The position numbers were made by a program, and so were the translations under genes. A DNA stretch of 64,000 nucleotides from assembly GCA_964589445.1 (NCBI GenBank), contig CAZPQX010000001.1, forward strand, positions 28,600 through 92,599, given 5' to 3'. Below are positions 3,114-64,000 of the stretch, one piece after another. Position 1 is the stretch's first letter, and each line of letters begins with the position of its first letter. Under the pieces are notes generated by a model. That model was not told the origin of the DNA, searched no databases, and saw only the letters and a list, made by a program, of their open reading frames with translations. This stretch comes from an uncultured Candidatus Saccharibacteria bacterium. Its GTDB lineage: Bacteria; Patescibacteriota; Minisyncoccia; Phycocordibacterales; WO2-35-19.

Positions 3114-3257
3114 TTTTTGGTTCTCCTTTATATATTATAGCAAACTTACAGGATTTGTCAACCAAGTTAGAAATATTATTTCTAACTGGGTCAATAGCAA
3201 AAATAACACCAAAAAACACCACTTTTAGGGGTGTTTTTTGTGCTTTATTTTGAGTAT

Positions 3258-8977: not shown

Positions 8978-9041
8978 TTTAATCTTACACAAGATGGTTT
9001 GGGGTAGCTGATACGAGCACCCCACAGAAACGGCGCCCTGT

Positions 9042-9082
9042 AATCCAGATCAACAAGGGGGCGCCGTTTTCTATTTGCAAAA
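9042..9082 (+). terminator. rho-independent terminator after rpsA
   Basis: cggcgccc...gggcgccg stem followed by TTTTCTATTT. Confidence 0.5.
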
Positions 9083-9154
9083 ATATTTTAATACTATATA
9101 TTACCAAAAGCCTTGGACCGTGCTCTGGAATAATGGGATTCCTAATTCCATTAT

Positions 9155-9197
9155 TCCTCTGAGTCAGGAGACCCGTGCCGAACGCTTTTCACCGCCG
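9155..9197 (+). terminator. second plus-strand terminator (cccgtgccg...cggcacggg + TTTTATATTT)
   Basis: Strong hairpin plus U-run in plus sense only; the region 9090-9200 between the two terminators has a TTGCAA-17-TATATT promoter-like element and a 10-bp inverted repeat ggaataatgg/ccattattcc. Confidence 0.35.
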
Positions 9198-9214
9198 GCA
9201 CGGGTTTTATATTT

Positions 9215-9736: not shown

Positions 9737-9767
9737 AAATTTTGAATTAGTTTTTATATGTAATATA

Positions 9768-39851: not shown

Positions 39852-39924
39852 GCGCGGTTAGCTCAGTTGGTAGAGCGCGTCATTGACGTTGACGATGCCG
39901 GGGGTTCGAATCCCTCACCGCGCA
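39852..39924 (+). tRNA. tRNA-Val (anticodon GAC)
   Basis: Manual fold: acceptor GCGCGGT/ACCGCGC, D-stem GCTC/GAGC, anticodon stem CGTCA/TGACG with loop TTGACGT, T-arm GGGGG-TTCGAAT-CCCTC, discriminator A. Confidence 0.9.
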
Positions 39925-49885: not shown

Positions 49886-50016
49886 AATTTGCTTATATAT
49901 AAACTCCATAATAAACAAAATAACTGAAATAATACAATGTAAATGTCTATATATTTGGAAAATAAGTGTTTTTATGTAAAAATAGTCTGGTACAAGCATT
50001 TTGTACGAAAACATAC

Positions 50017-50105
50017 GGAGACGTGTCAGAGTGGTCTAATGTGCCTCTTTGCTAAAGAGGTGTGCCCTTTAAAAGGCACCGACGGTTCGAATCCGTCCGT
50101 CTCCG
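50017..50105 (+). tRNA. tRNA-Ser (anticodon GCT)
   Basis: Manual fold: acceptor GGAGACG/CGTCTCC, anticodon stem CCTCT/AGAGG with loop TTGCTAA, long variable arm 'gtgccctttaaaaggcac', T-arm GACGG-TTCGAAT-CCGTC, discriminator G. Confidence 0.9.
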
Positions 50106-50180
50106 CATTGACAACCTGTTAGTTTTGTTGACCCATATGCTCGATGCCGAGCTGTGACCCACAAAGCTACAGTTGTAAGA

Positions 50181-50207
50181 AAAAGAGCGAACAATCGCTC
50201 TTTTTCT
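50181..50207. terminator. hairpin aaaaagagcga...tcgctcttttt between tRNA-Ser and the first island gene
   Basis: 7-bp stem flanked by A-run and T-run (bidirectional). Confidence 0.4.
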
Positions 50208-50215
50208 TTTACTAC

Positions 50216-50806
50216 TCAACCTGCCTTCGGTAACGGAACTACTAGCTCAAAGCCATTAGCACTGGTGTTGTGCGGATCCTCAGCAAGACCAATACAGAAC
50301 GTATTAAGCGGACTTTCCGGTAGATCTATCGTACCCATCCCTTCCGTTGGTTGATATCCTCCTGCCGTAAACGGCAGACCGTTCTCCCCGAGGAAGGAAA
50401 AGATAATAACAACGCTGTTCGTGTTGGTCGGCGGCGTAAGCACAAGCGGGTTTGGCTTCGGCTGGTCGTTATCGAGTGTCTGCCAATCCTTTATGCGAAT
50501 CATAAAAAGCACGCCCGAGACAGGTAACGGCACTTTGTAAAATGCTCGTTCCGTCTTGCCGTTTACAATCTCTTTCACTTCGAGCAGGTTGTCTGGGAAC
50601 TTGTACGAGATGTCGAGGGTTGTCGGGTCGGTGCGCTTGATAGGAACAGGTAATGTAGTTGGCACATCCGTGCCTCTCGTCAGGTCGGCTATCTTGTTCT
50701 TGAAAGAGAGCTTGAGACAGCCGCGTCCCTGCGCGTCCTTGAAATACAGAAGCGATCCGAGGTATTTATTGCCTATCAGTAGATGTGACTTGATCTCGTT
50801 GCTCAT
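50216..50806 (-). CDS. hypothetical protein (196 aa)
   Basis: ORF with island-type composition; no motifs. Confidence 0.45.
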   Translation of the reverse strand: MSNEIKSHLLIGNKYLGSLLYFKDAQGRGCLKLSFKNKIADLTRGTDVPTTLPVPIKRTDPTTLDISYKFPDNLLEVKEIVNGKTERAFYKVPLPVSGVLFMIRIKDWQTLDNDQPKPNPLVLTPPTNTNSVVIIFSFLGENGLPFTAGGYQPTEGMGTIDLPESPLNTFCIGLAEDPHNTSANGFELVVPLPKAG

Positions 50807-51293
50807 ATTCGTTTATGCGCTGGGCTAGTTCAGCAGGATCAAAGCGACCTTTGTTTTCTATTCGGAGCAGTGGCACGCCCGCATCAGCTAAAATGCGCTC
50901 CACCTCTTTGTCTCGCTCCTGTCGGTCAGGTCGTTCATGACTTTTGTCGTCTAGCTCAATGGCGAGCTTGGGCGAAATGTACGCCTTGTCGCACAGCACG
51001 AAATCAACGGACTTGCGGTTGATGTGTGCGAGTGCCGCACGCCAGTCCTGTCCCTTCACTTTGTTATCAAGAATGGTCGGGAGATGCACCTGTGCGAAGA
51101 CGTAGTATTTGTCGCCAACAGCGGCAATGAGTGCACCATAGAATTCGTGCTCAGCACGAGTGAGGAAGAATTGCTTACGGGTGTAGCGATACTTTGGTTT
51201 CTCGCGTTCTTCGCCGCCTTCAACAACCGCCTTGAGAATAGCTAGAGCTATGAAGAGGACTATGACGATTCCTGCGAGGATATAAATATTCAT
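50766..51293 (-). CDS. DUF2726-like (restriction-endonuclease-fold) protein with N-terminal TM helix
   Basis: 175 aa; 'YYVFAQVHLPTIL...VDFVLCDK...IELDDKSH' fits the DUF2726/PD-(D/E)xK-like family often seen in defence islands. Confidence 0.5.
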   Translation of the reverse strand: MNIYILAGIVIVLFIALAILKAVVEGGEEREKPKYRYTRKQFFLTRAEHEFYGALIAAVGDKYYVFAQVHLPTILDNKVKGQDWRAALAHINRKSVDFVLCDKAYISPKLAIELDDKSHERPDRQERDKEVERILADAGVPLLRIENKGRFDPAELAQRINEYEQRDQVTSTDRQ

Positions 51294-51302
51294 CCGATTT
51301 CA

Positions 51303-52061
51303 TTAAGAGGACGCTGCTTCTTTAAAGCGGCTCACTTTGCCGTCGTGGATGTCTATCATGAAAGAAAGCAACATGTCGTAAACCAAAAGCCAGAGACCTC
51401 CATTCTTAGTTCCTCGTACGCGCGCTAACCACATGTTATGATTTGATATTTCATCCGCTTTGAAAGAATAGTCCTCCGAGAAAAAACCACCCTTTTCATT
51501 CTTCGCAATTTTATTAATGCAATCTTCTATCAGTTTTACGTATTCTGGGAATGGCTTCCAAAGTGCCATTTCATAAGCCGCCTTGACCATGTGAGAACCA
51601 TAGTTGCCGTTCTGTAGCTGTATGAGAAATTCATCATGCTCTGATTTGGTCTTGGCATACTTCGTAACCTCTACTTTCGTAAGATTCTCGAGGTATTCCG
51701 TTATGTATGGTTGGTTCCTCTCAACGAATTCTGAAACGGCCTTGTCGCTTACCTCCAGTAACTGAATTGAATTCAACAGGTTGATTAGCGCACTTACTCT
51801 AGAAAAAAGATTCTCCGATTTAAGCTCATTTATTTGTCGCTCAATGAGAGCCACAATCGCAGGCGGAATCTGATTGCCGTCTTGGCTCAGGATAAATTTG
51901 ACCTCACCTATAAGCTCTTCAATTTGCTTCCTTGAGTCGTGAATTATCTCAAGCTGTTCCTTTGAGGTCTTGGTTGCAAATTGATCAAAATATTGGACGG
52001 ATTTTATCTTGTTCATACACTTAATGTTATCAAAATTCGTTTCCTTTATCCAGAAAGGCAT
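51303..52061 (-). CDS. hypothetical protein (252 aa)
   Basis: ORF abutting the recombinase gene. Confidence 0.45.
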   Translation of the reverse strand: MPFWIKETNFDNIKCMNKIKSVQYFDQFATKTSKEQLEIIHDSRKQIEELIGEVKFILSQDGNQIPPAIVALIERQINELKSENLFSRVSALINLLNSIQLLEVSDKAVSEFVERNQPYITEYLENLTKVEVTKYAKTKSEHDEFLIQLQNGNYGSHMVKAAYEMALWKPFPEYVKLIEDCINKIAKNEKGGFFSEDYSFKADEISNHNMWLARVRGTKNGGLWLLVYDMLLSFMIDIHDGKVSRFKEAASS

Positions 52062-53413
52062 TATTCCTCTACCAGAGTAATCTTCTTGTCATTCAGCACC
52101 AGCCTCGACCGCAAGTGACCCATTAATTCGCGCTTCTCAAGCGGCGTTCCTTCGCGTAGCACATACTTGGCGTATTCGCGCGTGGCAATGTCATCCTCGT
52201 CGATCTGCATCTTCGGCTTGCCTTTGACCGCCAACCTTTGCAGTCGGTTGAATCGCTTGATTTCTTCCTCAAGTTTCATTCGCATACCAAGTTCATTCAT
52301 GTTCAGCCTATCGATGATCTTGAATAGCTCCTCGACTAATTCCTCCTCGCGTATGTATTTATTCTTGCAGTTACGATCCCTTGCCTTCGAGCAAGAGTAG
52401 TAGACGTACTTTGCGTTTGTTCCGTCCTTGAGCAGTTTGTATTTCTCCTGCGCCGTTATCCCTGACCCGCACATGCCACAGGTGAAGAGCTTTGTGAAGG
52501 CGAACTCTCGGTTCTCTCTGACTATCTTGTCTCGCTTCAGCTGTTCCTGCACCTTCCTGAACAGCTCCTCGGTTATCAGTGGCTCATGCGTGCCTTGATA
52601 CCACTGTCCTGAGTTTCGGGGATACTCAAATGGTCCATAGTAGATCGGCATCTGGAGCATTCGATACACTCCACTCAATGTTAGCGGCCTGTTGCCGCGA
52701 GTATGGAAGTTGAGGTCGAAGCGGAGCCAGTTGTATACCTTTCGTCCCGACCATTGTTCATACGCCACTTTCTCGAACATTTGCTTTACGATTGGCGCGC
52801 GTTGCGGATCGACGACGATCCTGCATTTCTTGTCCATGAGCTTTTGATTCAAGTATCCGAGCGGTGCCATGCCTGGCCACAATCCCATCTCCACTCTCGT
52901 TCGCAGTCCTCGCTTAACGTTGATACCTCGATTGTCGTTCTCCAATTTTGCTTGGCTTCCAAGGATCATCAGAAGAAACTTCTCGTTCGGGTTATTGCCG
53001 AACGTCTGTCCGAAAGTTCGGATCATGTGTAACTTTCCTGCATCCATCAAATCCACGATTCGTCCGAGATCTCCGGCATTTCTTGAGATGCGATCCGGTG
53101 CCCATGTGAGAATTCCGTTGTATTTGCCGTCCCTGACTTCTTCGACTATTTCATTGAACACTGGCCGTTGACCTGTCTCCTTAGCCGAGTGACTTTCTCG
53201 CTTCATGGTCACGATCTCCAGACCCTCCCGTTCCGCGAGCTGGAGCATCTCCTTGATCTGGCTGTCGATACTCAAGACTTGCCGTTCCTCAGACTCGCTA
53301 CTCTTTCTTGCGTAAAGGCAGTATTTCACCTTTACGGGGATTGCTTCTTGTTTGGCAGCCATCCCATGCGGCGCTTGTATTGTGTTATTCATACAACAAC
53401 ATTGATGACGCAA
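52061..53413 (-). CDS. large serine recombinase (integrase)
   Basis: 'LYARKSSESEERQVLSIDSQ' catalytic Ser motif; resolvase domain, recombinase domain and Cys-rich zinc ribbon 'CGMCGSGI...YYSCSKARDRNC'; true start probably an internal Met ('MAAKQE'). Confidence 0.85.
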   Translation of the reverse strand: MRHQCCCMNNTIQAPHGMAAKQEAIPVKVKYCLYARKSSESEERQVLSIDSQIKEMLQLAEREGLEIVTMKRESHSAKETGQRPVFNEIVEEVRDGKYNGILTWAPDRISRNAGDLGRIVDLMDAGKLHMIRTFGQTFGNNPNEKFLLMILGSQAKLENDNRGINVKRGLRTRVEMGLWPGMAPLGYLNQKLMDKKCRIVVDPQRAPIVKQMFEKVAYEQWSGRKVYNWLRFDLNFHTRGNRPLTLSGVYRMLQMPIYYGPFEYPRNSGQWYQGTHEPLITEELFRKVQEQLKRDKIVRENREFAFTKLFTCGMCGSGITAQEKYKLLKDGTNAKYVYYSCSKARDRNCKNKYIREEELVEELFKIIDRLNMNELGMRMKLEEEIKRFNRLQRLAVKGKPKMQIDEDDIATREYAKYVLREGTPLEKRELMGHLRSRLVLNDKKITLVEE

Positions 53414-53445
53414 CCCTCCCTAGGAGTCCAGAGCGTCCCACATCC

Positions 53446-53778
53446 CTAAGAAGTTGGTAAATCGGTCGGCCTGAATTCCTCGATTTCTTTCCTGAGCCTC
53501 TCCATATCACTGAGTACTGCTGTATAGATTTTCTTTATCTTTTCTTTATCAAAATTTGATTCGTCGTTCTCTAAAAAATCGACAAGGTCATCGTCGAGGA
53601 AAGAAGCAAGCGATATGTACGCTCCCGCAAGAAGCTGCATTCGCTCTTTGATCGCTCGCTTCAAATGCTTCTTCGACTCAGGCAAGGAAGACATCCGGTT
53701 GAACGGCGTTGTGCCGGTCGGCTCATGGTATTTGAAATGCTTGCTCGCATCTATGATTGCCTCGATATCATCATTCAC
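53446..53778 (-). CDS. hypothetical protein (110 aa)
   Basis: ORF upstream of the recombinase on the same strand. Confidence 0.4.
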   Translation of the reverse strand: MNDDIEAIIDASKHFKYHEPTGTTPFNRMSSLPESKKHLKRAIKERMQLLAGAYISLASFLDDDLVDFLENDESNFDKEKIKKIYTAVLSDMERLRKEIEEFRPTDLPTS

Positions 53779-53873
53779 ATAGCAAGGGATGACGCTGATC
53801 CATTTATAAGTCCAGACCTATCGCTCTTCGCAAAAAGTCTAAGATGTTGTAAACTTATGGTAAGTCACTATTT

Positions 53874-54065
53874 ATGGCGAAACCGGATGACAAACTAAAG
53901 AAATTGCCGGATATACTGACGCTTAAGCAAGCCTCGGATGTTCTAAATGTTCATCCAAACACTTTGCGTAATTGGGACAAAAAAGGGGTTCTAAAAGCGA
54001 TAAGATATGGTGACCGTCGAGATCGCCGTTTTAAGAAGAGTGACCTCCTAAAGTTACTCAAATAA
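53874..54065 (+). CDS. excisionase/AlpA-family HTH DNA-binding protein
   Basis: 63 aa; 'LTLKQASDVLNVHPNTLRNWDKKGVL' helix-turn-helix typical of Xis/MerR-type small regulators. Confidence 0.6.
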   Translation: MAKPDDKLKKLPDILTLKQASDVLNVHPNTLRNWDKKGVLKAIRYGDRRDRRFKKSDLLKLLK

Positions 54066-54066
54066 A

Positions 54067-57000
54067 ATGGCTCGCTTCACTCGTAAATTTGATGCAAAGG
54101 CATATTGGGCAACGAAGCCTTACTGCACAGTTTGCAAGAACCACAAAGTGAAGGAAGGAAATATATGCTATGAATGCAAACAAGCGGCAATGAAACAAAA
54201 ACGCGAACTCAATAAGAATAACGAGGTAGAGATAGAGTCTTTTGCCTCTGCTGATATTGAGACTCCAGAGCCGCGAAAGAAGCGCGTTTCTAATATTTCA
54301 GCTGAGGCACAAAACAAAGTCGTTCGACTGTTTACATATTTGGAGAAGGCCCTCGCTGTCGATGATTCCATTGTTCGAGATTTTCGTACCAATACAGCAG
54401 CACCTTCTCCATGGTGGCTGGCAGACTATCCTACAGACCTCGAGAACCTAAGTATCCGCCCTTTTGATACTGAGAAAACTCCTGAAGGCGTGCAATCTAC
54501 TTCATGGCTGAAGGTGGAGAAGAAGAACATCAAGGCGGCACCTGAACTGCCAAGCCAACTTGAAGAGTGGATCGATGAGGTTAACCCACTACAAGAGCCG
54601 GTCGCTAAAGAAAAGGTAGATCGAAAAGTCCGCTTTGCTGACGACAAAGATCGTGAGAAGGAATTCAAGAATTTCCGGAAGAATTTTGAGCAAGGAGATG
54701 AAATTCCTGAAATCCTAAAAGATTGGGTGACAATCTTGCCAAACCAGTTGCCAGAATCAATCAGTGTGAAATACGTTCCTGATAATTGGGCGGATCATCC
54801 TGAGCTTGCAAAGTTGCTCGATGGATATACCGAAAATGAATGGAAGCCATGGGCAGAGCAGGTGAAGAAAGTCTATAAAGCAAATCTTCTCTACGATCAG
54901 CTCTATGCGCTCCGATTGCTCCTGAAGAACGAAGGAGATAACTACGAGCTCCTGTTGGGTCATGGTGTTTTGACCTGGCAACATCAGGGAGTAGGCACGA
55001 TCTACACTCCAGTTTTCCTAAGCCCTCTTACGCTCGATTTTGATGCGTCAAAACGAACGATTGAAATCAACCCTGATCCGATGTTCAGGAATTTCGTCGA
55101 GACCTCATCGCTCTACGAGACTGACAATCCGGCTGAAATGGATCTCATCACTTGGGGAGATACCATCAATGCCAATCCGTTCGACTTCTGGCATCTTGAA
55201 ACCCTCAAAGGTCAAGCACAGACGCTAGTCAACTACATCTCACCGGACGGAGAAGATAATTTTACTGACGAAATCGTATCTGCTCCTACTGCATCAAAAA
55301 ATCCAAGTATCTGGAACGCTCCGGTGATCTTTGCTCGAAAGCGAACCAACGATATGTGGTCAAAGTACGCGGCTACGATTCGCAAGGATATCGAGCAGTA
55401 CGGAGTCGAAGCGACTGAATTCATCACTGACCTTGTTGGTGAATATGACGAAACTCCTGTAGGTGCGCGTGATGGATCTGATGGTGAACGCATGGAAAGC
55501 GGTAATGTATCTATTCCGGAATCAGAACTCTACTTCCCATTGCCTTGGAATGACGAGCAGAAGCGAATCGCAGAAAGACTCGATGCAAATTATGGTGTCG
55601 TAGTTAAAGGCCCGCCGGGTACTGGAAAGAGCCACACCATCGCAAACCTGATCTCTCGCTTCTTGGCACAGGGTAAGAGCGTCCTAGTTACTTCACAGAC
55701 GAGTAAGGCCTTAGAGGTGTTGCGTGAAAAGCTTCCTGAAAATATCAGGAGTCTTGCCGTGTCCCAGTTGCAACAGACTGCGAAGCGAGACGATGTGCTC
55801 CAGCAATCGATTGGAGAGATCAGCTCTAATCTCGGCGAGAGAGATACTAAATTTAGTGAAGCACGCGCAGAGAATGTCCGCAGGGATCTTAAGAAAGTCC
55901 GAGAAGAAAAGGCTACCCTCGCAGCAAAGATTCGGCAGTACATCCTTACTGACTCATCGGAGAATTTGGTTATCGATGGTGAAGAAATAAAGCCTATCGA
56001 TGCGGCAAAATTTGTCGATAAGAATAAAGACAACGAGGCTATCGCTTGGTTTACCGACAAGGTTCCATTTGATTCCGCCCCTAACTTTACAGAGGAAGAT
56101 TTGCAGGAAATTTATGACCTCGCCAAGGATGTGGAGGAGGTAGATCGATCTCTTCACAAAGAAGATTTACCTGATCACTCGATCCTCCCTAATGAGGACG
56201 TGGTATTGAGCGCATTCGCTGCGCATCGTGATCTCAGTGCTAAATCTAAGGCCTCTGACGAAGCGTTCAGCAAGGCGAAGATCGATCAAGAGACGCTTGG
56301 TCAGCTATGGGAACTCCTCAGCAGGGCGAAGAAAGTCTTGGGATCTATAAATCAGGATTACGAGCAGGAAATCTTCGACGCCTGTGCGATTAGCCAGAAT
56401 GAGCGTGATAAGTGGTCTTCTATCCTCTCAAAGATTTCAGAAAAGATTCAAATCGTGGCGAAGGGAAAGAACAATGCTATTGGACATGTCATTACCGGAC
56501 AATCCAATCTTTCAACTCACGACCTTCGCGAGGCAGTCGAAGCGTTGTATGCAAAAGCATCAAAGGGAAAACTTGGAACATTTGGCAAGATGCTTCTCCC
56601 TGGAAATGCAAAGCGCATTCTTGAAACCTACAAAGTGGATGGAGCGGGACCTGATAGTCCTGAGAGAGTAGAAATCTTGCGAAATTCGATACTTGTCGAA
56701 GCCGCAGAACGTGAGATCAAGACGCTCCTAGAGCAGGGACTTTCAGCTCTCAAGAACCCTCTCGAAATCGATCTGGATCGTCTTGATCTGGTCAAGCTCG
56801 AGGTATTCGTTGCAAGCATTCAAAGACTTGCAAACTATCATTCTGATTTCGCTGGAATCAATACCTGTTTCAATGAGGTGAAGGAACTCTCTGATCTGTC
56901 GTTCACTAAGAAGACCGACATTGAGACCGCTATCGAACTTACTGCATCGCGTGCAGCCGCATTTGAGCTTAAGAATCTCGAGAAATCATTTACAGAATGG

Positions 57001-58872
57001 GAAGAAACTATCCGATCGTCAGTAAACTTCCGCACTCAGCACGTCATTGTCGATGATCTGGCTCAAGCAATTGTGAAGCGCAACTCTACCGGTTGGAAGA
57101 GTTGCATTGAGGAACTCAATTTGCTCGTTGGAAAGAAGGAGAAAGCGACGAGGCTTAACGAACTATGTGAACAGATCAAAGAACAGGTACCAAATCTGTG
57201 CCGTGAAATCATCGAGCTAGCTGATCAGAAGCAGAAATTTGATTGTCCAGAGAATCTGCTGATCGCATGGAAAGTCGCACGGCTTGAGTCATGGCTCAAT
57301 CATATTCATGACCATGTTGATGTCGATACCTTGCAGAGTGAACTCGAGCGTTTAAACAAAAAGGAATTTGAACTCAATTCTGAACTCGTTACTGTGCTTG
57401 CGTGGCAGCGTCAGATCGACAAGGTTACCAAGCGTCAGCGCGATGCTTTGATGGCTTGGTCCGATGCAATGAAGAAGTATGGTAAAGGCACTGGAAAATA
57501 TGCGAACAAGTGGCTGAATGCCGCACAGCAATCTCTCAAGGAAGCAAAGAATGCAGTTCCTGTCTGGATCATGCCTCTTCACCGCGCAGCTCAAATGTTC
57601 TCAGACCCTACGGCGGGAATGTTCGATGTGGTGATCTTCGATGAGGCAAGTCAATGCGATATTCGTGGTCTCACTATCGGATATCTTGGTAAGAAATTGC
57701 TTGTCGTTGGAGACCCTGACCAGATCAGTCCGGCGGGCATATTCCAAGATCAGGAAAAGACCTTTGAACTTATTTCCCGATTCCTCTTCGATATTCCCCA
57801 TAAGGATAACTTCTCGATCACTTCGAGCCTCTTCGATCTGGCAAAGATTCGTATTCCAAACATGATCCAGCTGAATGAGCACTTTAGATGCGTTCCTGAG
57901 GTCATTGCGTTCAGCAACTACCACATCTACGATTCAAAGCTTAAACCGCTTCGACATCCGCACCCTAAAGGACTCCTGAAGCCTGCTCTTGCTCCTATAT
58001 TGGTCGAGGGAGGCTATCAGAACACCAATAATAAGGTGAACGAACCAGAAGCGAAAGCTGTCGTAGAGAAGCTTGTAGAACTTTTGGAGGATCCGAATTA
58101 CCAGAAGCGTCCTGACGGCCATCTTTGCAGTTTTGGAATTATTTCTCTGCTCGCAGAAGATCAGGCGAAATACATCAAGGATCTAATTTTGAAACACCCG
58201 AAGATCGGAGAGAAAGTGATCGAGGAAAGAAAGATTATTTGTGGTGACGCATACGCATTCCAAGGCGATGAACGCGATGTGATGCTTCTATCCATGGTAA
58301 GAGCCCTTGATCCAAACAAGCCAAATGACACTGTCGCACCTCTTACTGATAAGGGTGCAGCACAACGCTTCAATGTGGCTGCTACTCGCGCACGTGATCA
58401 GGTATTCCTTTTCCACTCAATTCCTTTGGAAGAATTCCGAAATCAGAATGATTGGCGATTCAAGCTACTTAATTGGTACTACGATCCAAAGAAAGAGGAA
58501 CTCAAAGCTGGCCGCGAGATACTTAAGAAAGAATTTGATTCAGGCAGAGCGTCAAACTTCTCATACGAAGTTGGAAATCTCATTATCGATAAAGGTTATC
58601 AGGTTCTGCCTGAATATCCCGTAATCGGCTATCGTATAGATCTTGTAGTTCAAGGTGCTGAAGCTCGTCTTGCAGTTGAATGTGACGGAGACCAGTATCA
58701 TACGCTCGAAAACTGGGAAGAAGATCAAGTCCGCGAGAGACAACTTCGCCGTGCTGGGTGGGAATTCTGGCGTGTGACCGGTAGCTCATTCTATCGCCAC
58801 AAGGAAAAAGCACTCGATAGCCTTTGGAAGAAGCTCGACGAGCTTGGTATCAAGCCGATGATTGATCGCTAG
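54067..58872 (+). CDS. 1601-aa SF1 helicase (AAA_11/AAA_12, Upf1-like) fused to a C-terminal DUF559/Vsr-like endonuclease; N-terminal Cys4 zinc finger
   Basis: Walker A 'GPPGTGKSHTIANLI', Walker B/motif II 'VVIFDEASQCD', motif VI 'VAATRARDQVFLFHS'; C-terminal 'RIDLVVQGAEARLAVECDGDQYH...RRAGWEFWRV' = DUF559; N-terminal 'CTVCKNHKVKEGNICYEC'. Confidence 0.8.
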   Translation: MARFTRKFDAKAYWATKPYCTVCKNHKVKEGNICYECKQAAMKQKRELNKNNEVEIESFASADIETPEPRKKRVSNISAEAQNKVVRLFTYLEKALAVDDSIVRDFRTNTAAPSPWWLADYPTDLENLSIRPFDTEKTPEGVQSTSWLKVEKKNIKAAPELPSQLEEWIDEVNPLQEPVAKEKVDRKVRFADDKDREKEFKNFRKNFEQGDEIPEILKDWVTILPNQLPESISVKYVPDNWADHPELAKLLDGYTENEWKPWAEQVKKVYKANLLYDQLYALRLLLKNEGDNYELLLGHGVLTWQHQGVGTIYTPVFLSPLTLDFDASKRTIEINPDPMFRNFVETSSLYETDNPAEMDLITWGDTINANPFDFWHLETLKGQAQTLVNYISPDGEDNFTDEIVSAPTASKNPSIWNAPVIFARKRTNDMWSKYAATIRKDIEQYGVEATEFITDLVGEYDETPVGARDGSDGERMESGNVSIPESELYFPLPWNDEQKRIAERLDANYGVVVKGPPGTGKSHTIANLISRFLAQGKSVLVTSQTSKALEVLREKLPENIRSLAVSQLQQTAKRDDVLQQSIGEISSNLGERDTKFSEARAENVRRDLKKVREEKATLAAKIRQYILTDSSENLVIDGEEIKPIDAAKFVDKNKDNEAIAWFTDKVPFDSAPNFTEEDLQEIYDLAKDVEEVDRSLHKEDLPDHSILPNEDVVLSAFAAHRDLSAKSKASDEAFSKAKIDQETLGQLWELLSRAKKVLGSINQDYEQEIFDACAISQNERDKWSSILSKISEKIQIVAKGKNNAIGHVITGQSNLSTHDLREAVEALYAKASKGKLGTFGKMLLPGNAKRILETYKVDGAGPDSPERVEILRNSILVEAAEREIKTLLEQGLSALKNPLEIDLDRLDLVKLEVFVASIQRLANYHSDFAGINTCFNEVKELSDLSFTKKTDIETAIELTASRAAAFELKNLEKSFTEWEETIRSSVNFRTQHVIVDDLAQAIVKRNSTGWKSCIEELNLLVGKKEKATRLNELCEQIKEQVPNLCREIIELADQKQKFDCPENLLIAWKVARLESWLNHIHDHVDVDTLQSELERLNKKEFELNSELVTVLAWQRQIDKVTKRQRDALMAWSDAMKKYGKGTGKYANKWLNAAQQSLKEAKNAVPVWIMPLHRAAQMFSDPTAGMFDVVIFDEASQCDIRGLTIGYLGKKLLVVGDPDQISPAGIFQDQEKTFELISRFLFDIPHKDNFSITSSLFDLAKIRIPNMIQLNEHFRCVPEVIAFSNYHIYDSKLKPLRHPHPKGLLKPALAPILVEGGYQNTNNKVNEPEAKAVVEKLVELLEDPNYQKRPDGHLCSFGIISLLAEDQAKYIKDLILKHPKIGEKVIEERKIICGDAYAFQGDERDVMLLSMVRALDPNKPNDTVAPLTDKGAAQRFNVAATRARDQVFLFHSIPLEEFRNQNDWRFKLLNWYYDPKKEELKAGREILKKEFDSGRASNFSYEVGNLIIDKGYQVLPEYPVIGYRIDLVVQGAEARLAVECDGDQYHTLENWEEDQVRERQLRRAGWEFWRVTGSSFYRHKEKALDSLWKKLDELGIKPMIDR

Positions 58873-59023
58873 GTCTTCGCGACACGTTTTCAAAAGTGAT
58901 AAAATAAATCTACAAAGTCCCAAGACCTAACCCTCGAAAGAGATATGGTCGCAAAACCGTCCAAGGCAGTTTCCTCGCACGAGGATTCGACCTTTTGTGT
59001 CGAGTCGGTGCGGGGATTTTGTT

Positions 59024-60073
59024 TTATCCACCTATCCAGAACCACAGGTTATTCTTGGTCTCCTCGCTCAACTTGTAGGCATCAGCATGCGACATTACAC
59101 CCATATATGAGCGAAGCGAAGATTGCAGGGTTTCCTCGCTAATATTCCCGTCCTTAAACATTGCCGCTTTCTCTCGGAGCTTACGGATCATTCTGCGCCT
59201 CGTTCGTGCTCTGAGAAGGATATGGTGTGGAAAGATAACGTAGCCTAAGAAATCCACTCCTTGGTTTGGCTTACGGACAATAACCTTTTCAGGGTGAAGG
59301 GATAGCTTGAGTTGTTCTTGCAGGAAATTCTCCATCTTGACAAGGATCGGTTCCAATTCTGATTCGTCATGGCTCAATACCACAAAATCATCGGTGTAAC
59401 GGACATAGCACGCGACTTTCAGTTCGCGCTTAACGAACTGGTCAAATTCATTCATGTATACATTCGCAAAAATCTGCGAAGTGAGATTGCCGATCGGAAC
59501 ACCTCTATGACTGAAAAGATCGGACTGACCGCTAGAGAAGCTTCCTACAATTTCTCTCAAAAGCTCCATCATCTCTGGATCTTTTATTTTCCTTTCAAGA
59601 ATAGACAGCAGGATTGTGTGGTCCACCGAATCAAAGAATTTTCTTACATCACATTTAAGCGCATAGCAGGGGCGCGTGTAATTCTTGCTTACTTTGCGGA
59701 TCATTGTATTGAGTGTCGCAACCCCCTTATGAGTTCCTTTGCCTACGCGACAAGAGAACGAGGTCGGTATAAAAGTAGGCTCAAAAATCGGATTCAATAC
59801 ATTGAAAACTGCATGGTGCAGAACTCTGTCTCGCACGCTTGCTTTATGTATATGTCGGCGCTTCGGATCATAGATATGAAAACCCATATACGGACGATGT
59901 TTGTAGGTCTTGTCCCTAATCTCTCGGTACAACTCGAAAACATTCTGCTCAAGATTTCTCTCGAACTCCAGAACGTCCTCCTTCTTTCCTTTGTCCCGCT
60001 TGAATTCGTCCCAAGCCGAAAACAAGTTTTCGGGACTGCACACATTATCAAATAATTTATTAAATGTTTTCAT
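59024..60073 (-). CDS. diversity-generating retroelement reverse transcriptase
   Basis: 349 aa; RT motifs, 'YVRYTDDFVV' (YxDD); DGR-specific motif-4 'GVPIGNLTSQIFANVYM' (SQ in place of the group-II QG). Confidence 0.85.
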   Translation of the reverse strand: MKTFNKLFDNVCSPENLFSAWDEFKRDKGKKEDVLEFERNLEQNVFELYREIRDKTYKHRPYMGFHIYDPKRRHIHKASVRDRVLHHAVFNVLNPIFEPTFIPTSFSCRVGKGTHKGVATLNTMIRKVSKNYTRPCYALKCDVRKFFDSVDHTILLSILERKIKDPEMMELLREIVGSFSSGQSDLFSHRGVPIGNLTSQIFANVYMNEFDQFVKRELKVACYVRYTDDFVVLSHDESELEPILVKMENFLQEQLKLSLHPEKVIVRKPNQGVDFLGYVIFPHHILLRARTRRRMIRKLREKAAMFKDGNISEETLQSSLRSYMGVMSHADAYKLSEETKNNLWFWIGG

Positions 60074-60426
60074 CTATGAATGACACTGACATCCCAATTC
60101 TTAAGAAATCGTATGAGCTTTATAAGATCTTTCACGAATACCGAAGAGTTATTCCGAAGACGGAACGCTTCACGGTATACGAGCGTAGCGAGAACGCCAT
60201 ACTCGACGTTATCGAATGCTTCTTTGAGGCAGGATACATGCGAAGCAATAACAAAGTTGCATTGCTGGAAAGAGCGAGCGTGAAGCTTAATCTTCTGCGC
60301 TTCTTCTTCCGTCTCATGAAGGAGAGCAAGACCTTCGACAACAAGAAATACGTTGCGCTTCAGACGGTCATCGACGAGATCGGCCGAATGCTGGGCGGAT
60401 GGATCCGTTCCAGCAGCGCGAGGTAA
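60064..60426 (+). CDS. avd: Avd-like accessory variability determinant (four-helix-bundle protein)
   Basis: ~117-120 aa; 'IPKTERFTVYER...FFEAGYMRSNNKVALLERASVKLNLLRFFFRLM...IDEIGRMLGGWIRS' matches the four-helix-bundle / 23S-IVS protein family used by DGRs; the likely start is the second ATG (~60076). Confidence 0.7.
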   Translation: MFSSMNDTDIPILKKSYELYKIFHEYRRVIPKTERFTVYERSENAILDVIECFFEAGYMRSNNKVALLERASVKLNLLRFFFRLMKESKTFDNKKYVALQTVIDEIGRMLGGWIRSSSAR

Positions 60427-60474
60427 CAAAAGAGCGTCCGCTGGGACGCTCTTTTGCCGATGAAGGAGTGACTT

Positions 60475-60602
60475 CGGAACGAACCCGGAAGCCGACCCGT
60501 AGTTGTCGTTGGCATTGTCGAACCAGTTCGTGTCGAACTTGACCTTGCCGTCGTTGAAGTTGAAGTACGGGGCGTTGTCGAAGCGGACATCGGAATCCGG
60601 AT
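60475..60602 (-). repeat. DGR template repeat (TR)
   Basis: 128-bp repeat with ~10 mismatches to VR at 61014-61141; every mismatch is at a T on the plus strand (= A in the minus-sense TR). Confidence 0.85.
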
Positions 60603-60906
60603 GTTTGCCTTTACCCGTCCGTGTCACCGAAGCTTGAAAGCGGTTCCTGTTGGAAACAAGACGCGATCTCGCTCCTGAATTTTATTCAGCAACACCCGCC
60701 GTATAGGCTTATTGGTTTGCATTGAATAAAAGCAAGCAGTATCTCCTTATCGCGGCACTCTCCTCCAAACCGTAATCGAGAGGACTCTGGCCGGTTTCTC
60801 TAAAGAGAAAGAGTTCGGCGACGGCAATCCGTAAACGGCCGTGCATTAGCCTAGACTCGCCGTTAATTGTATCAAAAATTGAGCGCTACGCGCATAAAAA
60901 GAAATC

Positions 60907-60936
60907 AGGGTTACCCACGCTGTGGATAACCCTGAA
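60907..60936. terminator. hairpin cagggtta-cccacgctgtgga-taaccctg ~70 bp 3' of VR (target-gene terminator and/or DGR-associated stem-loop)
   Basis: 8-bp stem, T-runs on both sides. Confidence 0.5.
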
Positions 60937-61004
60937 ATTTTTTGCCGCGAATTCAAGAATCAAAAGAAAGGATTCAAAAGACTCAAGAATTCGAGGATCG
61001 AGGA

Positions 61005-61898
61005 TCAGTTCTGCGGAACGAACCCGGAAGCCGACCCGTAGTAGTCGCTGGCATAGTCGAACCAGTACGTGCCGAACTTGACCTCGCCGTCGTGGAAGTT
61101 GAAGTACGGGGCGCGGCCGAAGCGGACATCGGAATCCGGATCGTCGTACTCGTCACCCGAGCAGTCGATCCAGAGGTCGTCATAGTTCATGAGCCGTTCC
61201 GGATGGGTCAGGATCATGATGCCGATGGCGAACGCGCCGAGGCCGAACTCGTTGGAGGCGAAAACCTCGCGAGCACGACGAACGGAACGTCCACGATGAC
61301 GGATGCCGAACTGCGCCGGAACGACGAGGATGTCGTGATCTTTCTGCTCGTCGCCGAGCTTCTGGAACACGCCTGCCGTCTTGGTTGTCTGCCGAAGACG
61401 CTCGGGACCGAGCTGGCCGTCGCGGTAGTTGTAGAACTTGCCGTTACGGGTCTGCTTGATCATGTCGAGCACCTTCTGCACCGCCTCGTTGTAGGTCGGG
61501 GCGATCTTCTCCCACTTCGGGATGGCGAACCATCCTTCGGCGTTCGGGGGAAGCGCACCTTCGGCCAGCTTCTCGTCGGCGTAGCCGATGCCGGGGAACA
61601 GCTCGCGCAGACGGTTGGTCTGTTCGGTGATGCCCTTCGGCTTGTAGCCGGAGAGGTACCCGTAGCTGGATTCGGTTTCCTCGTCCTTGAACTTGTCGGA
61701 GACCGACAGGTCCTTGAGCGAGGCGAGTGCCGCATTGCGGATTGCTTCGGCGAATTCGTCGCCGTGTTCGATGACGCGCTGTGCGCCAGGGTTGTCGAGA
61801 CCGAGCTCACCGAGAACCTTCTCGATGGCATCGGAGCCGAACCGGTTGATCTGCTTGATCTGACCGGCGGTTGCGTTTGTCTGAGTAATCGCGTTCAT
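61005..61898 (-). CDS. DGR target protein with C-terminal variable C-type-lectin-like region
   Basis: 298 aa from the GGAG-preceded start 'MNAITQTN'; C-terminus 'SDVRFGRAPYFNFHDGEVKFGTYWFDYASDYYGSASGFVPQN' is encoded by VR; markedly GC-rich. Confidence 0.75.
   Translation of the reverse strand: MNAITQTNATAGQIKQINRFGSDAIEKVLGELGLDNPGAQRVIEHGDEFAEAIRNAALASLKDLSVSDKFKDEETESSYGYLSGYKPKGITEQTNRLRELFPGIGYADEKLAEGALPPNAEGWFAIPKWEKIAPTYNEAVQKVLDMIKQTRNGKFYNYRDGQLGPERLRQTTKTAGVFQKLGDEQKDHDILVVPAQFGIRHRGRSVRRAREVFASNEFGLGAFAIGIMILTHPERLMNYDDLWIDCSGDEYDDPDSDVRFGRAPYFNFHDGEVKFGTYWFDYASDYYGSASGFVPQN
61014..61141 (-). repeat. DGR variable repeat (VR)
   Basis: See TR. The TR-encoded peptide is 'DSDVRFDNAPYFNFNDGKVKFDTNWFDNANDNYGSASGFVP'; the VR-encoded version has Asn (AAC) codons diversified to G/R/H/Y/S. 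Confidence 0.85.
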
Positions 61899-62397
61899 TT
61901 GCGTTATCTCCAATTTTTCTGAATTGCCGAAATCGCTCGGTGACGACTTGTCCCTGTATGAGACGAGTTTGCTGAGGCCTAAACTAAGCCACAAAAAGCT
62001 CGTCTCATGCATCGTTATGCAGTGATCCTTATCTCAAAGAGCAGTCTCCAGTATCATATCAAACAAATGACTGTTTGTCAATGATTTTGGCGATATGTCA
62101 AATGTCGGTAAAAGGGCTTCGCAACAGCCTTTTTCTAAGCTAAGCTACTGACTAATACCATCAATTTTGGTATTATGTTCTTGGTACAACTGAATATGAA
62201 TTGACCTAACCCCTCAGGGATTTCCCCGAGGATATGGTCGAAAATTCCGTCCAAAGTAAAGAACTCCTAATCAGAGCTACTTTGGACGGTCATATCTCGA
62301 AAGGGGTATGGGTATATCTCACGGGATATATCGGCCTGGTTAGGAGCTTTTTGCTACCTGACTAATTATTAGATTAGTTAAAAATCCGTCCAAAAAT

Positions 62398-63078
62398 ATG
62401 AATGATTCTTCACAGCCTTCAGCGAAGGCTACGCACCTTACCCTAGGTGGCATTATCGTCTGGCTCTTTAGTATCGGTTTTCTGTTCTCAGGGTTCATGT
62501 CCCTCTTTACCAACTTCGGCATGGGATTGATCATGATCCTCGCGGGTCTCTTGTTCCTCCCACCGCTGACAAAATACTTGAAAGAGAAGCACAACTTCTC
62601 GATCTCCGGTCCGCTCAAAATAGTGCTCCTATTCGGGATCATTATCATGGGCGGCTATTTTATTAGCCAAGATGATGACACGGCACCAGCAACCGTAACG
62701 GAGACTCGTCCTTCAGCCGCGTACGATGTTTCGTCTCTTGTCGGACTCAGCCTCACGGAGTTGAGAACCAAACTCGGCACTCCGTCATACGACACCGAAC
62801 CTACCGCACAGCAACTTGCTCTCGGTGGAATCGATACGTGGGAAAAGAGCTGGGATGTCGGTGAGTACAGCATCATGGCAACGTACGACATCAAGACAAA
62901 GGAAATCACTGACCTGTTCTTCGGCGCAGATAGCGACGCGGCCTTCAAGCGATTCGAGGATACCAACAATATCCTTGCCGCAGGAAACCTCTCAACAAGC
63001 GATCCTAAATACTCGGTCGAGTTCGTCAAAGCGAAGAATGGTCCCGGCTACACCGGAGCTATCATCCGCGCAAAGTAA
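62398..63078 (+). CDS. membrane protein with extracytoplasmic C-terminal domain
   Basis: 226 aa; 3 TM helices then 'SQDDDTAPATVTETRPSAAYDVSSLVG...' soluble domain. Confidence 0.5.
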   Translation: MNDSSQPSAKATHLTLGGIIVWLFSIGFLFSGFMSLFTNFGMGLIMILAGLLFLPPLTKYLKEKHNFSISGPLKIVLLFGIIIMGGYFISQDDDTAPATVTETRPSAAYDVSSLVGLSLTELRTKLGTPSYDTEPTAQQLALGGIDTWEKSWDVGEYSIMATYDIKTKEITDLFFGADSDAAFKRFEDTNNILAAGNLSTSDPKYSVEFVKAKNGPGYTGAIIRAK

Positions 63079-63081
63079 GCC

Positions 63082-63879
63082 ATGAAATTCCAATTACCCG
63101 GCTTCGTCGATCGGTACTTCAAGAAACAAGAGGGTCTCAAGAAATACCAAGAATCAATTACTTCGTTTCTAGCAGACAGCGAGATTTCAGTCGAAGAGAA
63201 CGAAAAGCTTGTGGAGATGCAAAAGGAATTCGGCCTATTCGCCGAGGACGTGAAAGGTATTCACAAAACCTCGATTGCTTCCGTATTCACGAGTATCGGT
63301 TCTGACAAACGGATCACTGACGAGGAGAAAGTTTCTCTTGAAAAGTTGCTTACCCACTTCAACGTCTCGAAAGAAGACATCGCGTTCAATCAAGACAGCT
63401 TCAACAAGTATTATGCTCTTGCTCTCATTGATAAGGGAGTGCTGCCTACGATAAGTAACCCTGAGTCACAGGTGAATATTGTCTTCAAACCAGATGAGAT
63501 CCTGCACTGGGGCATGGTGGCAAACTTGATGAAGCGTAAGAAGATAACGACAAAAATAAATTACGGCGGACTCACCGCTTCGGTCAAGATTATGAAAGGG
63601 GTACGCTACCGCGTTGGCTCGATGAACATAGGTAGCGAATCCAAGGAAATAATAGATATGGAGGATTCCGGCATCTTCTACGTCACTAACCAACGTCTTG
63701 GCTATCTTGGATACCGCAAACAATTCTCGTTCCCATTCAAGAAGATTGGGTCACTAGAGCTTCGTCCAGATGGACTTCATATCTTCAAGGACGGCAAGGA
63801 AGCCCCGTATATTCTTCAGTTGAGCGATTACGAGTTAGCACTTGCGGTTATTTCATTCCTCTTAAATAAGGACGCATAA
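63082..63879 (+). CDS. hypothetical protein (265 aa)
   Basis: ORF immediately after the previous gene; no motifs. Confidence 0.45.
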   Translation: MKFQLPGFVDRYFKKQEGLKKYQESITSFLADSEISVEENEKLVEMQKEFGLFAEDVKGIHKTSIASVFTSIGSDKRITDEEKVSLEKLLTHFNVSKEDIAFNQDSFNKYYALALIDKGVLPTISNPESQVNIVFKPDEILHWGMVANLMKRKKITTKINYGGLTASVKIMKGVRYRVGSMNIGSESKEIIDMEDSGIFYVTNQRLGYLGYRKQFSFPFKKIGSLELRPDGLHIFKDGKEAPYILQLSDYELALAVISFLLNKDA

Positions 63880-64000
63880 GAGCCCCTATAGGGATACCTT
63901 TTTGAATTCCTCTTTGTACTTCTCAATCACATCCAAAACCTCGCTATCTTCTTCGAGGTCAAACCCGAACCTGCCGTCCGTGATGTGGATGCCGTAGCGG

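Follow-up and report, generated by a model that had tools for sequence, protein, structure and literature searches.

A diversity-generating retroelement in a Patescibacteria contig: gene layout, template RNA and GC-rich target

Positions 59024-61898 of the 64,000-nt stretch of DNA analysed here (the window) contain a reverse transcriptase (RT) gene, an avd gene, a template repeat (TR) and a variable repeat (VR). Do these form a complete diversity-generating retroelement (DGR), and is the locus as unusual as the initial annotation, which singled out its divergent genes and GC-rich target, would have it? DGRs of such a layout have been catalogued in bacteria of the Candidate Phyla Radiation (CPR) since 2017, the year of what is reportedly the first survey of CPR DGRs, by Paul et al. 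Our best explanation, which we consider very probable, is a complete chromosomal DGR of a Patescibacteria (CPR) lineage, with architecture B3 (Wu et al.) and probably belonging to DGR clade 2 (Roux et al.). The claim of a complete DGR was borne out on every point that could be tested, namely the RT, Avd, the TR/VR pair and the position of VR at the C-terminus of the target. The locus has a DGR-clade RT, Avd, and repeats that differ solely at TR adenines; VR codes for the exposed end of a C-type-lectin-fold protein, and exactly the adenine-templated codons are hypervariable throughout the family. This kind of DGR is already known and is standard in the CPR, and nothing at the locus is new in kind. 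It does offer a clear and intact representative of the DGR lineage that is at once the most abundant and the least studied. Comparing loci yields testable leads in the structure of a leader RNA, an anomaly in target composition and an association with LOOT RNA. The features of the locus are listed in Table 1.

Table 1. Features of the locus, by position in the window.
Feature	Position	Strand	Remarks
LOOT-like sRNA candidate, weak	58924-59029	+	convergent with RT, overlaps RT stop codon
DGR reverse transcriptase, 349 aa	59024-60073	-	Pfam RVT_1 1.2e-26; IGNLTSQ and YTDD
avd accessory gene, 116 aa from conserved start	60076-60426	+	ORF opens at 60064; NCBIfam DivGenRetAVD
13-bp hairpin, loop CAGC, A-tract 5', T-tract 3'	60427-60456	.	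adjoins avd stop, 18 nt after TR
Conserved 3' tail AAGTCACTCC, directly after TR	60465-60474	-	AAGTC(A/T)CTCC in almost all loci
Template repeat (TR), 128 nt, 29 adenines	60475-60602	-	
Structured non-coding leader of DGR RNA, about 256 nt, 9 helices	60603-60858	-	covariation, 20 loci
Predicted extended -10 box TGaTACAAT, DGR RNA promoter	60866-60871	-	T, A, T of hexamer invariant, 20 loci
Target intrinsic terminator: 14-bp stem, loop AGC, then TTTCTTTTT	60905-60935	-	terminator scan
DGR target gene, 297 aa	61005-61898	-	RBS GGAGA 9 nt before ATG
Variable repeat (VR)	61014-61141	-	codes target residues 254-295
5'UTR hairpin of target gene, inverted repeat I1	61955-62011		
Target promoter TTGACA-17-TATGAT with TG, predicted	62053-62081	-	11/12 consensus matches
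LOOT RNA (RF03000)	62203-62332	+	78.1 bits vs gathering score 46.4; model positions 1-121

Reverse transcriptase, avd and gene layout

The two RT motifs read in the initial annotation are present, IGNLTSQ at residue 194 and YTDD at residue 226. They match the DGR forms of motif 4, (I/L/V)GxxxSQ, and of YxDD, and by its sequence the RT is assigned to the DGR clade. The closest solved structure is that of Bordetella bRT (8ub7_A, E = 1.5e-51, full length); group II intron RTs reach only about 1e-25 to 6e-25. Roughly 8000 homologues were found, those with names coming from Patescibacteria. Named homologues of the target, which has roughly 3500 homologues in all, are likewise all from Patescibacteria, and these names point to probable membership of clade 2. 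That the RT comes from a different class of retroelement (group II intron, retron or defence RT), with the repeat a coincidence, is extremely improbable. Such a reading can draw on NCBIfam matches to group II intron, Drt and retron models, but these are sub-threshold (group II intron TIGR04416, 162.8 vs a cutoff of 300; retron NF038233, 59.9 vs 235). Moreover, bRT leads the solved matches by 26 orders of magnitude, neither group II intron nor retron RNA turned up when the region was scanned with Rfam, and both Avd and adenine-only mismatches are present.

The avd gene was also correctly recognised: its product scores 84.6 bits against NF033474 (DivGenRetAVD; NCBIfam cutoff, 80) and 1.6e-17 against Pfam bAvd, and its best PDB matches are Bbp7 (4dwl) and Avd (8ub7_B). 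In avd it is the second ATG, at 60076, that is conserved as the start, the N-terminal MNDxDIPILKK being kept in relatives. RT and avd therefore start back to back, without a 10-nt overlap. Thus, the genes are indeed divergent, as first described, but the reported overlap of their first ATGs does not stand: the true starts read CAT-AG-ATG, with the RT start codon at 60073-60071. In relatives, the spacing of the starts runs from an overlap of 2 nt (CATG) to a gap of 23 nt. A consensus scan and inspection of the sequence revealed no convincing promoter or Shine-Dalgarno sequence for either RT or avd. As there is no intergenic space, each gene would be transcribed from within the other, or the RT translated by read-through of the DGR RNA.

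TR lies beyond avd and in the same sense as the RT, as noted at the outset, and avd, on the opposite strand, separates the two. This is architecture B3, defined as TR-(avd)-RT and found in 90% of CPR DGRs (Wu et al. 2018, PMC5758913). The description of the arrangement as unusual has to be dropped: all 25+ related Patescibacteria loci examined have architecture B3, including abutting or overlapping start codons, and the seemingly odd layout is normal for a DGR type that is standard in CPR bacteria. The targets of clade 2, a clade confined to Patescibacteria, have no transmembrane segments or known domains (Roux et al. 2021, PMC8144416). Like the CPR DGRs (B3, Wu et al. 2018; clade 2, Roux et al. 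2021), the locus is chromosomal and has a Patescibacteria host, its genes follow the same order and orientations, Avd is present, and the target has no transmembrane segment or Pfam domain and carries its VR at the C-terminus; nothing essential differs. In relatives, the DGR is flanked by core genes, such as ribosomal protein operons. The available parts of the two CPR papers (Wu, PMC5758913; Roux, PMC8144416) make no mention of a 256-nt leader, head-to-head starts, constant target GC or an adjacent LOOT RNA.

Template and variable repeats

TR and VR are direct repeats in the minus sense and align over 128 nt without gaps. The expectation of about ten differences, all at TR adenines, was confirmed on alignment: 10 of 10 fall on A (29 A in 128 nt; hypergeometric P = 8.8e-8). 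All 29 TR adenines occupy codon position 1 or 2, and 19 codons of VR are templated by adenines. The amino acid changes had been summarised as Asn to Gly, Arg, His, Tyr or Ser. This is right for N>R, N>H, N>Y (three times) and N>S, but the VR glycines derive from Asp, since those codon changes read D>G (twice), and there is one further change, K>E. VR forms the C-terminus of the target, as stated, ending an ORF at 61005-61898 that encodes 297 residues (given earlier as 298).

The last 24 nt of TR are GC-rich, contain no adenine and are identical in VR. This block is followed by a fixed CAG in VR and AAG in TR and then by divergent, conserved sequence, TGATCCT vs TCACTCC (19 loci). The GC-rich 24 nt and the CAG/AAG together make a putative IMH-like/IMH*-like element. 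The first A of the tail after TR is the fixed difference between the two; what could be counted as an eleventh A>C mismatch, at 60474, is thus not a mutation (AAG vs CAG in 19/19 loci compared). No further VR was found in the window using the A-to-N TR pattern and the IMH-like end as queries.

A GC-rich hairpin or cruciform 4-34 bp downstream of VR is a feature of phage DGRs (Guo et al. 2011). No hairpin was found in this interval; the first strong one lies 79 nt past the end of TR/VR homology and is a terminator. A confident inverted repeat follows the IMH in only 34% of DGRs, so a VR without an adjoining hairpin is not exceptional, and the feature is not defining. The stem-loop reported about 70 bp 3' of VR does exist, as a hairpin and T-run 70 nt after the stop codon, but it is no oddity: it is the target's own terminator.

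The DGR is apparently active, to judge from sequence comparisons. The relatives P0001 and P0003 show 98.4% identity outside VR and 71-76% inside. Across 116 homologues, entropy is 2.41 bits at TR-adenine-templated codons vs 0.59 at other VR codons. TR and VR could be aligned over their full length in 16 related loci, and in every one of these the mismatches are overwhelmingly at adenines, with 11-24 A-site changes each; when the alignment is restricted to the core repeat, A-site changes are the sole kind of mismatch. We consider it unlikely that the locus is a decayed or domesticated relic, in which genes and repeats are intact, retrohoming has ceased and the VR differences are old. In favour of a relic, only 10/29 TR adenines are changed here, vs 14-24 in relatives. 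However, all ORFs are intact, non-adenine mismatches number zero and every cis element is conserved. Near-identical relatives differ almost exclusively in VR, which argues for recent VR turnover in the lineage.

The DGR RNA and its structured leader

Upstream of TR in the minus sense lies a conserved non-coding leader. RNAalifold predicted 93 pairs across 20 loci, 47 of which show compensatory changes. For the 76 pairs tested, 97.2% of cells are paired vs 43-50% when the partners are slid, and 46 pairs covary vs 10-15 with slid partners. The leader also holds an invariant single-stranded GGAGAUACUGCUU (60746-60734). An nhmmer profile of the leader matches the window once. Searched against 1.16 Mb of loci, it matches solely beside members of this DGR family, the matches being complete DGR loci or partial ones at contig or locus ends. 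A metagenome scan with a 19-nt leader motif gave about 15 real matches; the rest were mostly chance matches on unrelated contigs. There is no ORF of at least 50 aa within 60628-60941, and an Rfam scan of the leader found no family at threshold. Rfam RT-16 was considered as the identity of the leader and rejected: the match (18.7 bits, E = 2.6) was taken as noise, as it was not reproduced in 9 related loci.

Transcription of the DGR RNA is predicted to start near 60858, downstream of the -10 box. A consensus scan missed this box because its -35 region is poor. It is also the point at which colinearity with loci carrying an inverted target stops. At the other end, the tail after TR can pair with leader GGAGAUACU, with 82.8% of cells paired and one compensatory change. 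We do not count this leader-tail duplex as backed by covariation; it is compatible with the alignment, essentially without covariation. The GGA of the leader has an alternative pairing with UCC at the 5' end of TR. The hairpin at 60427-60456 (helix 12) shows compensatory changes in 8/12 pairs across 20 loci and was not called by the terminator scan. We read it as a candidate bidirectional terminator and/or Avd-binding stem-loop of the DGR RNA. [quoted passage not shown]

These elements suggest the following mechanism. A minus-strand DGR RNA of about 430 nt would be made from the extended -10 promoter near 60866-60871 and consist of the 256-nt leader, the 128-nt TR, the conserved 10-nt tail and the hairpin abutting the avd stop codon. 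RT and Avd would bind this RNA, the hairpin at 60427-60456 binding Avd by analogy with the Bordetella RNP, and pairing between GGAGAUACU and AGUCACUCC would bring the leader beside the 3' end of TR. From that end, cDNA would be synthesised with misincorporation opposite adenines, and VR would then be replaced, with the 3' boundary set by the adenine-free GC-rich 24 nt and the fixed CAG (VR)/AAG (TR). Where the RNA starts, where its 3' end lies and where cDNA synthesis is primed are all predictions.

The DGR of Bordetella phage BPP-1 (mtd-avd-TR-brt; cryo-EM structure of bRT-Avd-RNA, PDB 8ub7, Handa et al.) is a close known counterpart. [quoted passage not shown] They differ in three respects. 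In BPP-1, avd is co-oriented with TR and upstream of it, whereas here avd is convergent with TR and about 50 nt away. The functional RNA scaffold of BPP-1 (the 140-nt Sp) lies downstream of TR, whereas the large structured RNA of our locus (256 nt) lies upstream. Finally, VR of BPP-1 is followed within 24 bp by a hairpin or cruciform; the first strong hairpin here, 79 nt away, is a terminator.

A more far-reaching reading joins two separate ideas; we put it forward tentatively and rate it as possible but doubtful. In the first, the RNA scaffold of CPR (B3) DGRs would be permuted relative to Bordetella: the leader upstream of TR, not a downstream spacer, would organise the RT-Avd complex, and its GGAGAUACU : AGUCACUCC contact would provide the priming site or put it in place. 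In the second, the target would be a conserved, self-contained module whose non-coding parts act in regulation or homing. This module would comprise the CDS near 60% GC, a UUGA-rich 3'UTR, the terminator hairpin with TTATCCACA and the adjacent LOOT sRNA; if true, it would give the orphan LOOT RNA its first biological context. The covariation-backed leader could guide biochemical reconstitution of a CPR DGR, and it makes it possible to ask if priming still works as in Bordetella when the scaffold is 5' of the template.

The target gene, its composition and its neighbours

The C-terminal part of the target has a C-type-lectin fold, which the initial annotation had proposed looking for, and VR lies at the C-terminus of this fold. 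The protein has no transmembrane segment and no Pfam domain, and sequence and profile searches of PDB and Pfam gave no match. Compared with Treponema denticola TvpA and the FGE-type C-type-lectin variable proteins, it has no lipoprotein signal and a different N-terminal helical domain, and sequence similarity to them is undetectable (no Pfam/PDB sequence match). A longer ORF of 335 aa, starting at 62012, was considered and set aside: both the RBS and the rise to high GC point to 61898, and 293-299 aa is the length of most homologues.

The GC content of the target CDS is 0.607 (GC3 0.81), vs 0.438 for RT, 0.468 for avd and 0.415 for the window. The GC-richness noticed at first sight is therefore real, but it is not an oddity of this locus, since the whole target gene family is GC-rich in every host: the CDS stays near 60% GC, at a GC3 of about 0.8, across hosts that span 33-60% GC, while RT and avd follow the host. 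Recent transfer does not account for this, as the bias persists at 41-95% protein identity and throughout that range of hosts. Regional mutation bias is contradicted by the UTRs, which have 0.36-0.45 GC, and adenine-only erosion by the DGR is contradicted by T3, which is depleted too (2.2-fold). Ordinary translational selection is unlikely, given that the pooled GC3 of the neighbour ORFs of locus L001, among them ribosomal-protein and secY genes, is about 0.46. The target GC content is thus a gene-specific, host-independent anomaly that transfer, regional mutation bias and ordinary codon adaptation do not explain.

A GC jump of 15-17 points at the target is what an assembly chimera or recent graft would produce, with target and TR from a high-GC organism joined to a low-GC RT and avd. 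Such an origin is very unlikely. Both layout and jump are seen again in 38 independent loci, which represent different assemblies and phyla-level groups, and the jump ends exactly at the CDS ends, the low-GC UTRs lying outside it. Furthermore, the window is colinear with the related locus L004 over 4.1 kb, at 84% identity.

The target is served by a strong promoter and a terminator of its own, and in a sister clade it is a separable module that has been inverted in place. Active inversion was considered and rejected: the inverted-target loci share clade-specific leader features, such as an ATATAG insertion, and the inversion therefore looks like one old rearrangement. The target terminator is a GGGTTATCCACA hairpin. 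The sequence of its stem is conserved and holds TTATCCACA at 60921-60929. The motif GGGnT(A/G)TCCACA occurs in 25 loci (once in 24 of them, twice in L021), and it follows the target gene in every locus checked.

The LOOT RNA at 62203-62332 is divergent from the target gene, and this adjacency recurs in many related loci. It matches the full model of the LOOT motif (RF03000; Weinberg et al. 2017), a family with no assigned function. The main text of Weinberg et al. 2017 does not mention a link to DGR targets, and the adjacency is a first genomic association for this orphan RNA. The LOOT-like candidate at 58924-59029 scores only 16.5 bits (E = 0.45) and was not accepted as a LOOT member. It ends in a terminator (58993-59015, with a T-run; terminator scan), its first hairpin matches LOOT well, and the element is kept downstream of RT in 7-8 of 15 loci.

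Architecture and diversification of the retroelement

The locus is a genuine and complete diversity-generating retroelement (DGR), its anatomy as given in the initial annotation, and by kind it is an additional member of a known Patescibacteria DGR family. Judged by comparison with relatives, what had been singled out as odd is normal in the DGRs of Patescibacteria. Interest is raised somewhat by side findings, namely the leader RNA, the composition anomaly of the target gene, the adjacency of a LOOT RNA and a sequence-conserved terminator. The layout in the table was derived from the ORF list, a repeat finder and direct alignment.

Features of the DGR locus (window positions) and LOOT matches near the target gene in related loci (locus positions)
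Locus	Feature	Position	Strand	Remarks
Window	LOOT RNA (RF03000)	62203-62332	+	full-length
Window	Target promoter	62081-62053	-
Window	5'UTR hairpin	61955-62011
Window	Target CDS	61898-61005	-
Window	VR	61141-61014	-	within target CDS
Window	Target 3'UTR	60936-61004	-	before terminator
Window	Target terminator hairpin	60935-60905	-	non-coding stretch beyond, toward TR
Window	-10 box, DGR RNA	60871-60866		predicted promoter
Window	TR	60602-60475	-
Window	Post-TR hairpin	60456-60427
Window	avd	60076-60426	+	opposite strand to target, TR, RT
Window	RT	60073-59024	-
Window	LOOT-like candidate	58924-59029	+	own terminator 58993-59015
L004	LOOT	1622-1751
L005	LOOT	5584-5711
L012	LOOT	5572-5688
L029	LOOT	5574-5695
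L034	LOOT	5581-5712
L008	LOOT	7050-7172
L010	LOOT	7066-7185
L033	LOOT	7071-7191
L013	LOOT	3618-3738
L102	LOOT	1403-1517

The alignment of the template repeat (TR) with the variable repeat (VR) is ungapped, spans 128 nt and shows 10 differences, all 10 at TR adenines, in agreement with the initial count; given that 29 of the 128 nt are adenines, the hypergeometric P for adenine-only mismatches is 8.8e-8. Every TR adenine occupies codon position 1 or 2. From TR to VR, Asn becomes Tyr three times and also Arg, His and Ser, Asp becomes Gly twice and Lys becomes Glu, so that the proposed replacement of Asn codons holds for R, H, Y and S, but the glycines have their origin in Asp codons. No further VRs were found when the 64-kb window was searched with a TR in which every A was changed to N. 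The repeat boundary reads ...CCG CAG in the VR and ...CCG AAGTC in the TR in 19 loci, and this invariance makes the A-to-C change a fixed donor/recipient distinction. It is preceded by 24 adenine-free, GC-rich nucleotides and followed by differing conserved sequences; these boundary elements appear to correspond to IMH and IMH*, the 3' ends of VR and TR.

Each of 16 related loci whose TR and VR align over their full length has 11-24 mismatches at TR adenines, the sole kind of mismatch in the core repeat. Across 116 homologues, the entropy of VR codons is 2.41 bits where they are templated by a TR adenine and 0.59 bits where they are not, compared with 0.60 bits in the remainder of the protein. 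In two close relatives, P0001 and P0003, 4 of the 253 residues outside the VR differ from the window target, as do 10-12 of the 42 inside it. On sequence grounds, the window DGR is probably active. Some target homologues are longer, at about 480 aa (P0086, 482 aa; P0093, 478 aa), and align to the query twice, which suggests that the target domain was duplicated in tandem or fused.

The reverse transcriptase (RT) contains the motifs IGNLTSQ and YTDD, and among solved structures it is closest to the Bordetella DGR RT (8ub7_A, E 1.5e-51 over the full length), with group II intron RTs far behind at about 1e-25. Assignment to the group II intron, retron or Drt types was rejected, as the NCBIfam models for these types all score far under their cutoffs. 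The accessory protein Avd scores 84.6 against a cutoff of 80 for the NCBIfam DGR-Avd equivalog, and its best PDB match is Bordetella Avd. Homologues of the target and RT number in the thousands, the named ones belonging to Patescibacteria (Zambryskibacteria, Nomurabacteria, Taylorbacteria, Paceibacterota). A Patescibacteria-restricted DGR clade, with targets lacking TM segments or known domains, has been described (Roux et al. 2021, PMC8144416).

The divergent arrangement, initially considered unusual, is architecture B3, TR-(avd)-RT, as defined in the text of Wu et al. 2018 (PMC5758913), and this core is common to all DGR-bearing relatives compared. It is true that avd and RT diverge with no intergenic space for promoters, but their start codons do not overlap as had been thought: the conserved avd start, MNDxDIPILKK, is the ATG at 60076, and the junction therefore reads CAT-AG-ATG. 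In relatives the two starts may overlap by 2 nt, sharing a CATG, or lie up to 23 nt apart, and head-to-head start codons are, by this comparison, a feature of the clade. Neither a promoter scan nor sequence inspection revealed a convincing promoter or Shine-Dalgarno sequence for avd or RT. Expression might rely on promoters embedded in the opposing coding sequences, or the TR transcript might read through and serve for translation of the RT.

In three Zambryskibacteria loci (L001-L003; locus 118-4839, 7990-10516), the DGR is flanked on one side by the last genes of the ribosomal spc operon (secY-adk-map) and on the other by ndk/rplT-rpmI-infC. Wu et al. 2018 (PMC5758913) likewise remark that ribosomal protein genes are interleaved with some CPR DGRs. 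The context in the window is different, with a 1601-aa helicase-like ORF at 54067-58872.

The RNA around the template repeat

In an alignment of 20 distinct loci, about 256 nt 5' of the TR, the leader, match the coding regions in their degree of conservation and yet contain no ORF. Upstream is a conserved TAtAaT-type -10 box preceded by TG, and strong conservation starts ~8 nt past it, at GAGTCTAGGC. RNAalifold predicted 93 pairs, 47 of them with compensatory changes. The 76 pairs outside the TR are formed in 97.2% of cells, compared with 43-50% when partners are slid, and 46 of them covary, compared with 10-15; none of 500 shuffles attained the observed values. The leader sequence profile matches once in the window and, in 1.16 Mb of loci, only beside this DGR family (complete, or partial at contig or locus ends); about 100 unrelated contigs carrying the 19-nt seed by chance gave no match. 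No Rfam 15 family reached threshold, and RT-16 was dismissed as a weak match (E 2.6) absent from relatives.

The TR is followed directly by a conserved tail, AAGTC(A/T)CTCC, and then by a 12-13-bp hairpin that covaries freely and adjoins the avd stop codon. As this hairpin carries both an A-tract and a T-tract, it could act as a terminator in both directions, for the transcript of the TR and for the convergent mRNA of avd. According to Handa et al. (bioRxiv 10.1101/2023.10.23.563531), a stem-loop is present just 3' of the TR in most Avd-type DGRs and binds Avd in the Bordetella structure; they further report a duplex that joins sequences upstream and downstream of the TR. In our alignment, pairing is possible between the post-TR tail and GGAGAUACU, an invariant segment of the leader (82.8% of cells paired), with a perfect 9-bp duplex in locus L064 and a single compensatory change, in L008. 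Because there is so little variation, this pairing is weakly supported; the UCC at the TR 5' end is an alternative partner. In the window the large RNA scaffold lies 5' of the template, which sets the element clearly apart from that of Bordetella, where it lies 3'. We found no description of a 5' scaffold in the literature compared, which did not extend to Paul et al. 2017 or the final Handa version.

Surroundings of the target gene

The stem-loop noted initially ~70 bp 3' of the VR is present. A terminator scan identifies it as a canonical intrinsic terminator, with a 14-bp stem and then TTTCTTTTT. Phage DGRs have a cruciform 4-34 bp from the VR (Guo et al. 2011), and the distance does differ from that in the Bordetella phage BPP-1; DGR status is not thereby lost. 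A confident hairpin is found near the VR in only 34% of DGRs. In contrast to the post-TR hairpin, the terminator stem keeps its sequence across loci: 25 of them carry GGGnT(A/G)TCCACA (one copy in 24, two in L021), after the target gene wherever its position could be checked. The window stem contains TTATCCACA (60921-60929), a classical DnaA-box nonamer; the 64 kb hold two copies where 0.65 would be expected, an excess that alone lacks significance. The 3'UTR is also conserved, with or without an adjacent DGR, and its four (C/T)TTGA repeats, 7-14 nt apart (9, 14 and 7 nt start to start), could form a protein- or RNA-binding platform.

Upstream of the target, a LOOT RNA scores 78.1 bits (Rfam gathering score, 46.4) and is transcribed divergently, 305 nt from the target start. 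A further 14 matches occur in 47 related loci, and 11 of the 15 are within ~320 nt of a target gene. LOOT lies ~290-313 nt upstream of the target, divergently, in loci arranged like the window, and, where the target is inverted, ~155-200 nt downstream of it on its own strand; with respect to RT-avd-TR, its position is thus fixed. In its main text, the paper describing LOOT (Weinberg et al. 2017) makes no link to DGRs. A LOOT-like candidate, convergent with the RT and overlapping its stop codon, reaches only 16.5 bits; its first hairpin and AAAA linker resemble LOOT, and it is conserved 3' of the RT in 7-8 of 15 loci.

The inverted-target loci form a sister clade (L008, L010, L013, L022, L027, L033 and others), colinear with the window in RT, avd, TR and leader up to the -10 box (~60871). 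The block from ~60908 to ~61950, comprising terminator, target CDS, 3'UTR and 5'UTR, is inverted, with breakpoints at the -10 box and near the 5'UTR hairpin. An invertible switch was considered, but these loci share clade-specific leader features, and the inversion therefore looks like a single old rearrangement. About half of the target homologues compared have no DGR within 6 kb, although one of these, L029, is truncated where its locus ends.

Base composition of the target gene

The high GC content reported for the target is real and, moreover, general across loci. In 38 loci (L001-L038; homologues also include L159 and L160), target GC remains near 60% (52-64%) regardless of flanking GC (33-60%), a median excess of 17 points, and RT and avd follow the host. 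Mean GC3 is 0.79, compared with 0.46 in neighbouring ORFs, with both A3 (0.07 vs 0.25) and T3 (0.135 vs 0.29) depleted; among window ORFs the target is the top outlier (0.79; median 0.40, SD 0.12). Recent transfer does not explain an excess that persists at 41-95% protein identity, and in a Taylorbacteria locus, while RT and avd track the host; a truncated homologue from Doudnabacteria shows a smaller excess. Regional mutation bias is contradicted by an excess that is even along the CDS and ends at its boundaries (3'UTR 0.36, 5'UTR 0.45), and adenine-only erosion by the DGR by the 2.2-fold depletion of T3. Ordinary codon adaptation is unlikely, since the L001 neighbours, including ribosomal-protein and secY genes, have a pooled GC3 of ~0.46.

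The window itself is heterogeneous in composition. GC skew reaches +0.22 to +0.30 at 19-22 kb (19001-22000), and the last 14 kb (50001-64000), DGR included, are 5-8 GC points above the window mean. Of two tRNA genes (39852-39924 and 50017-50105), the second lies at the start of this GC-richer block.
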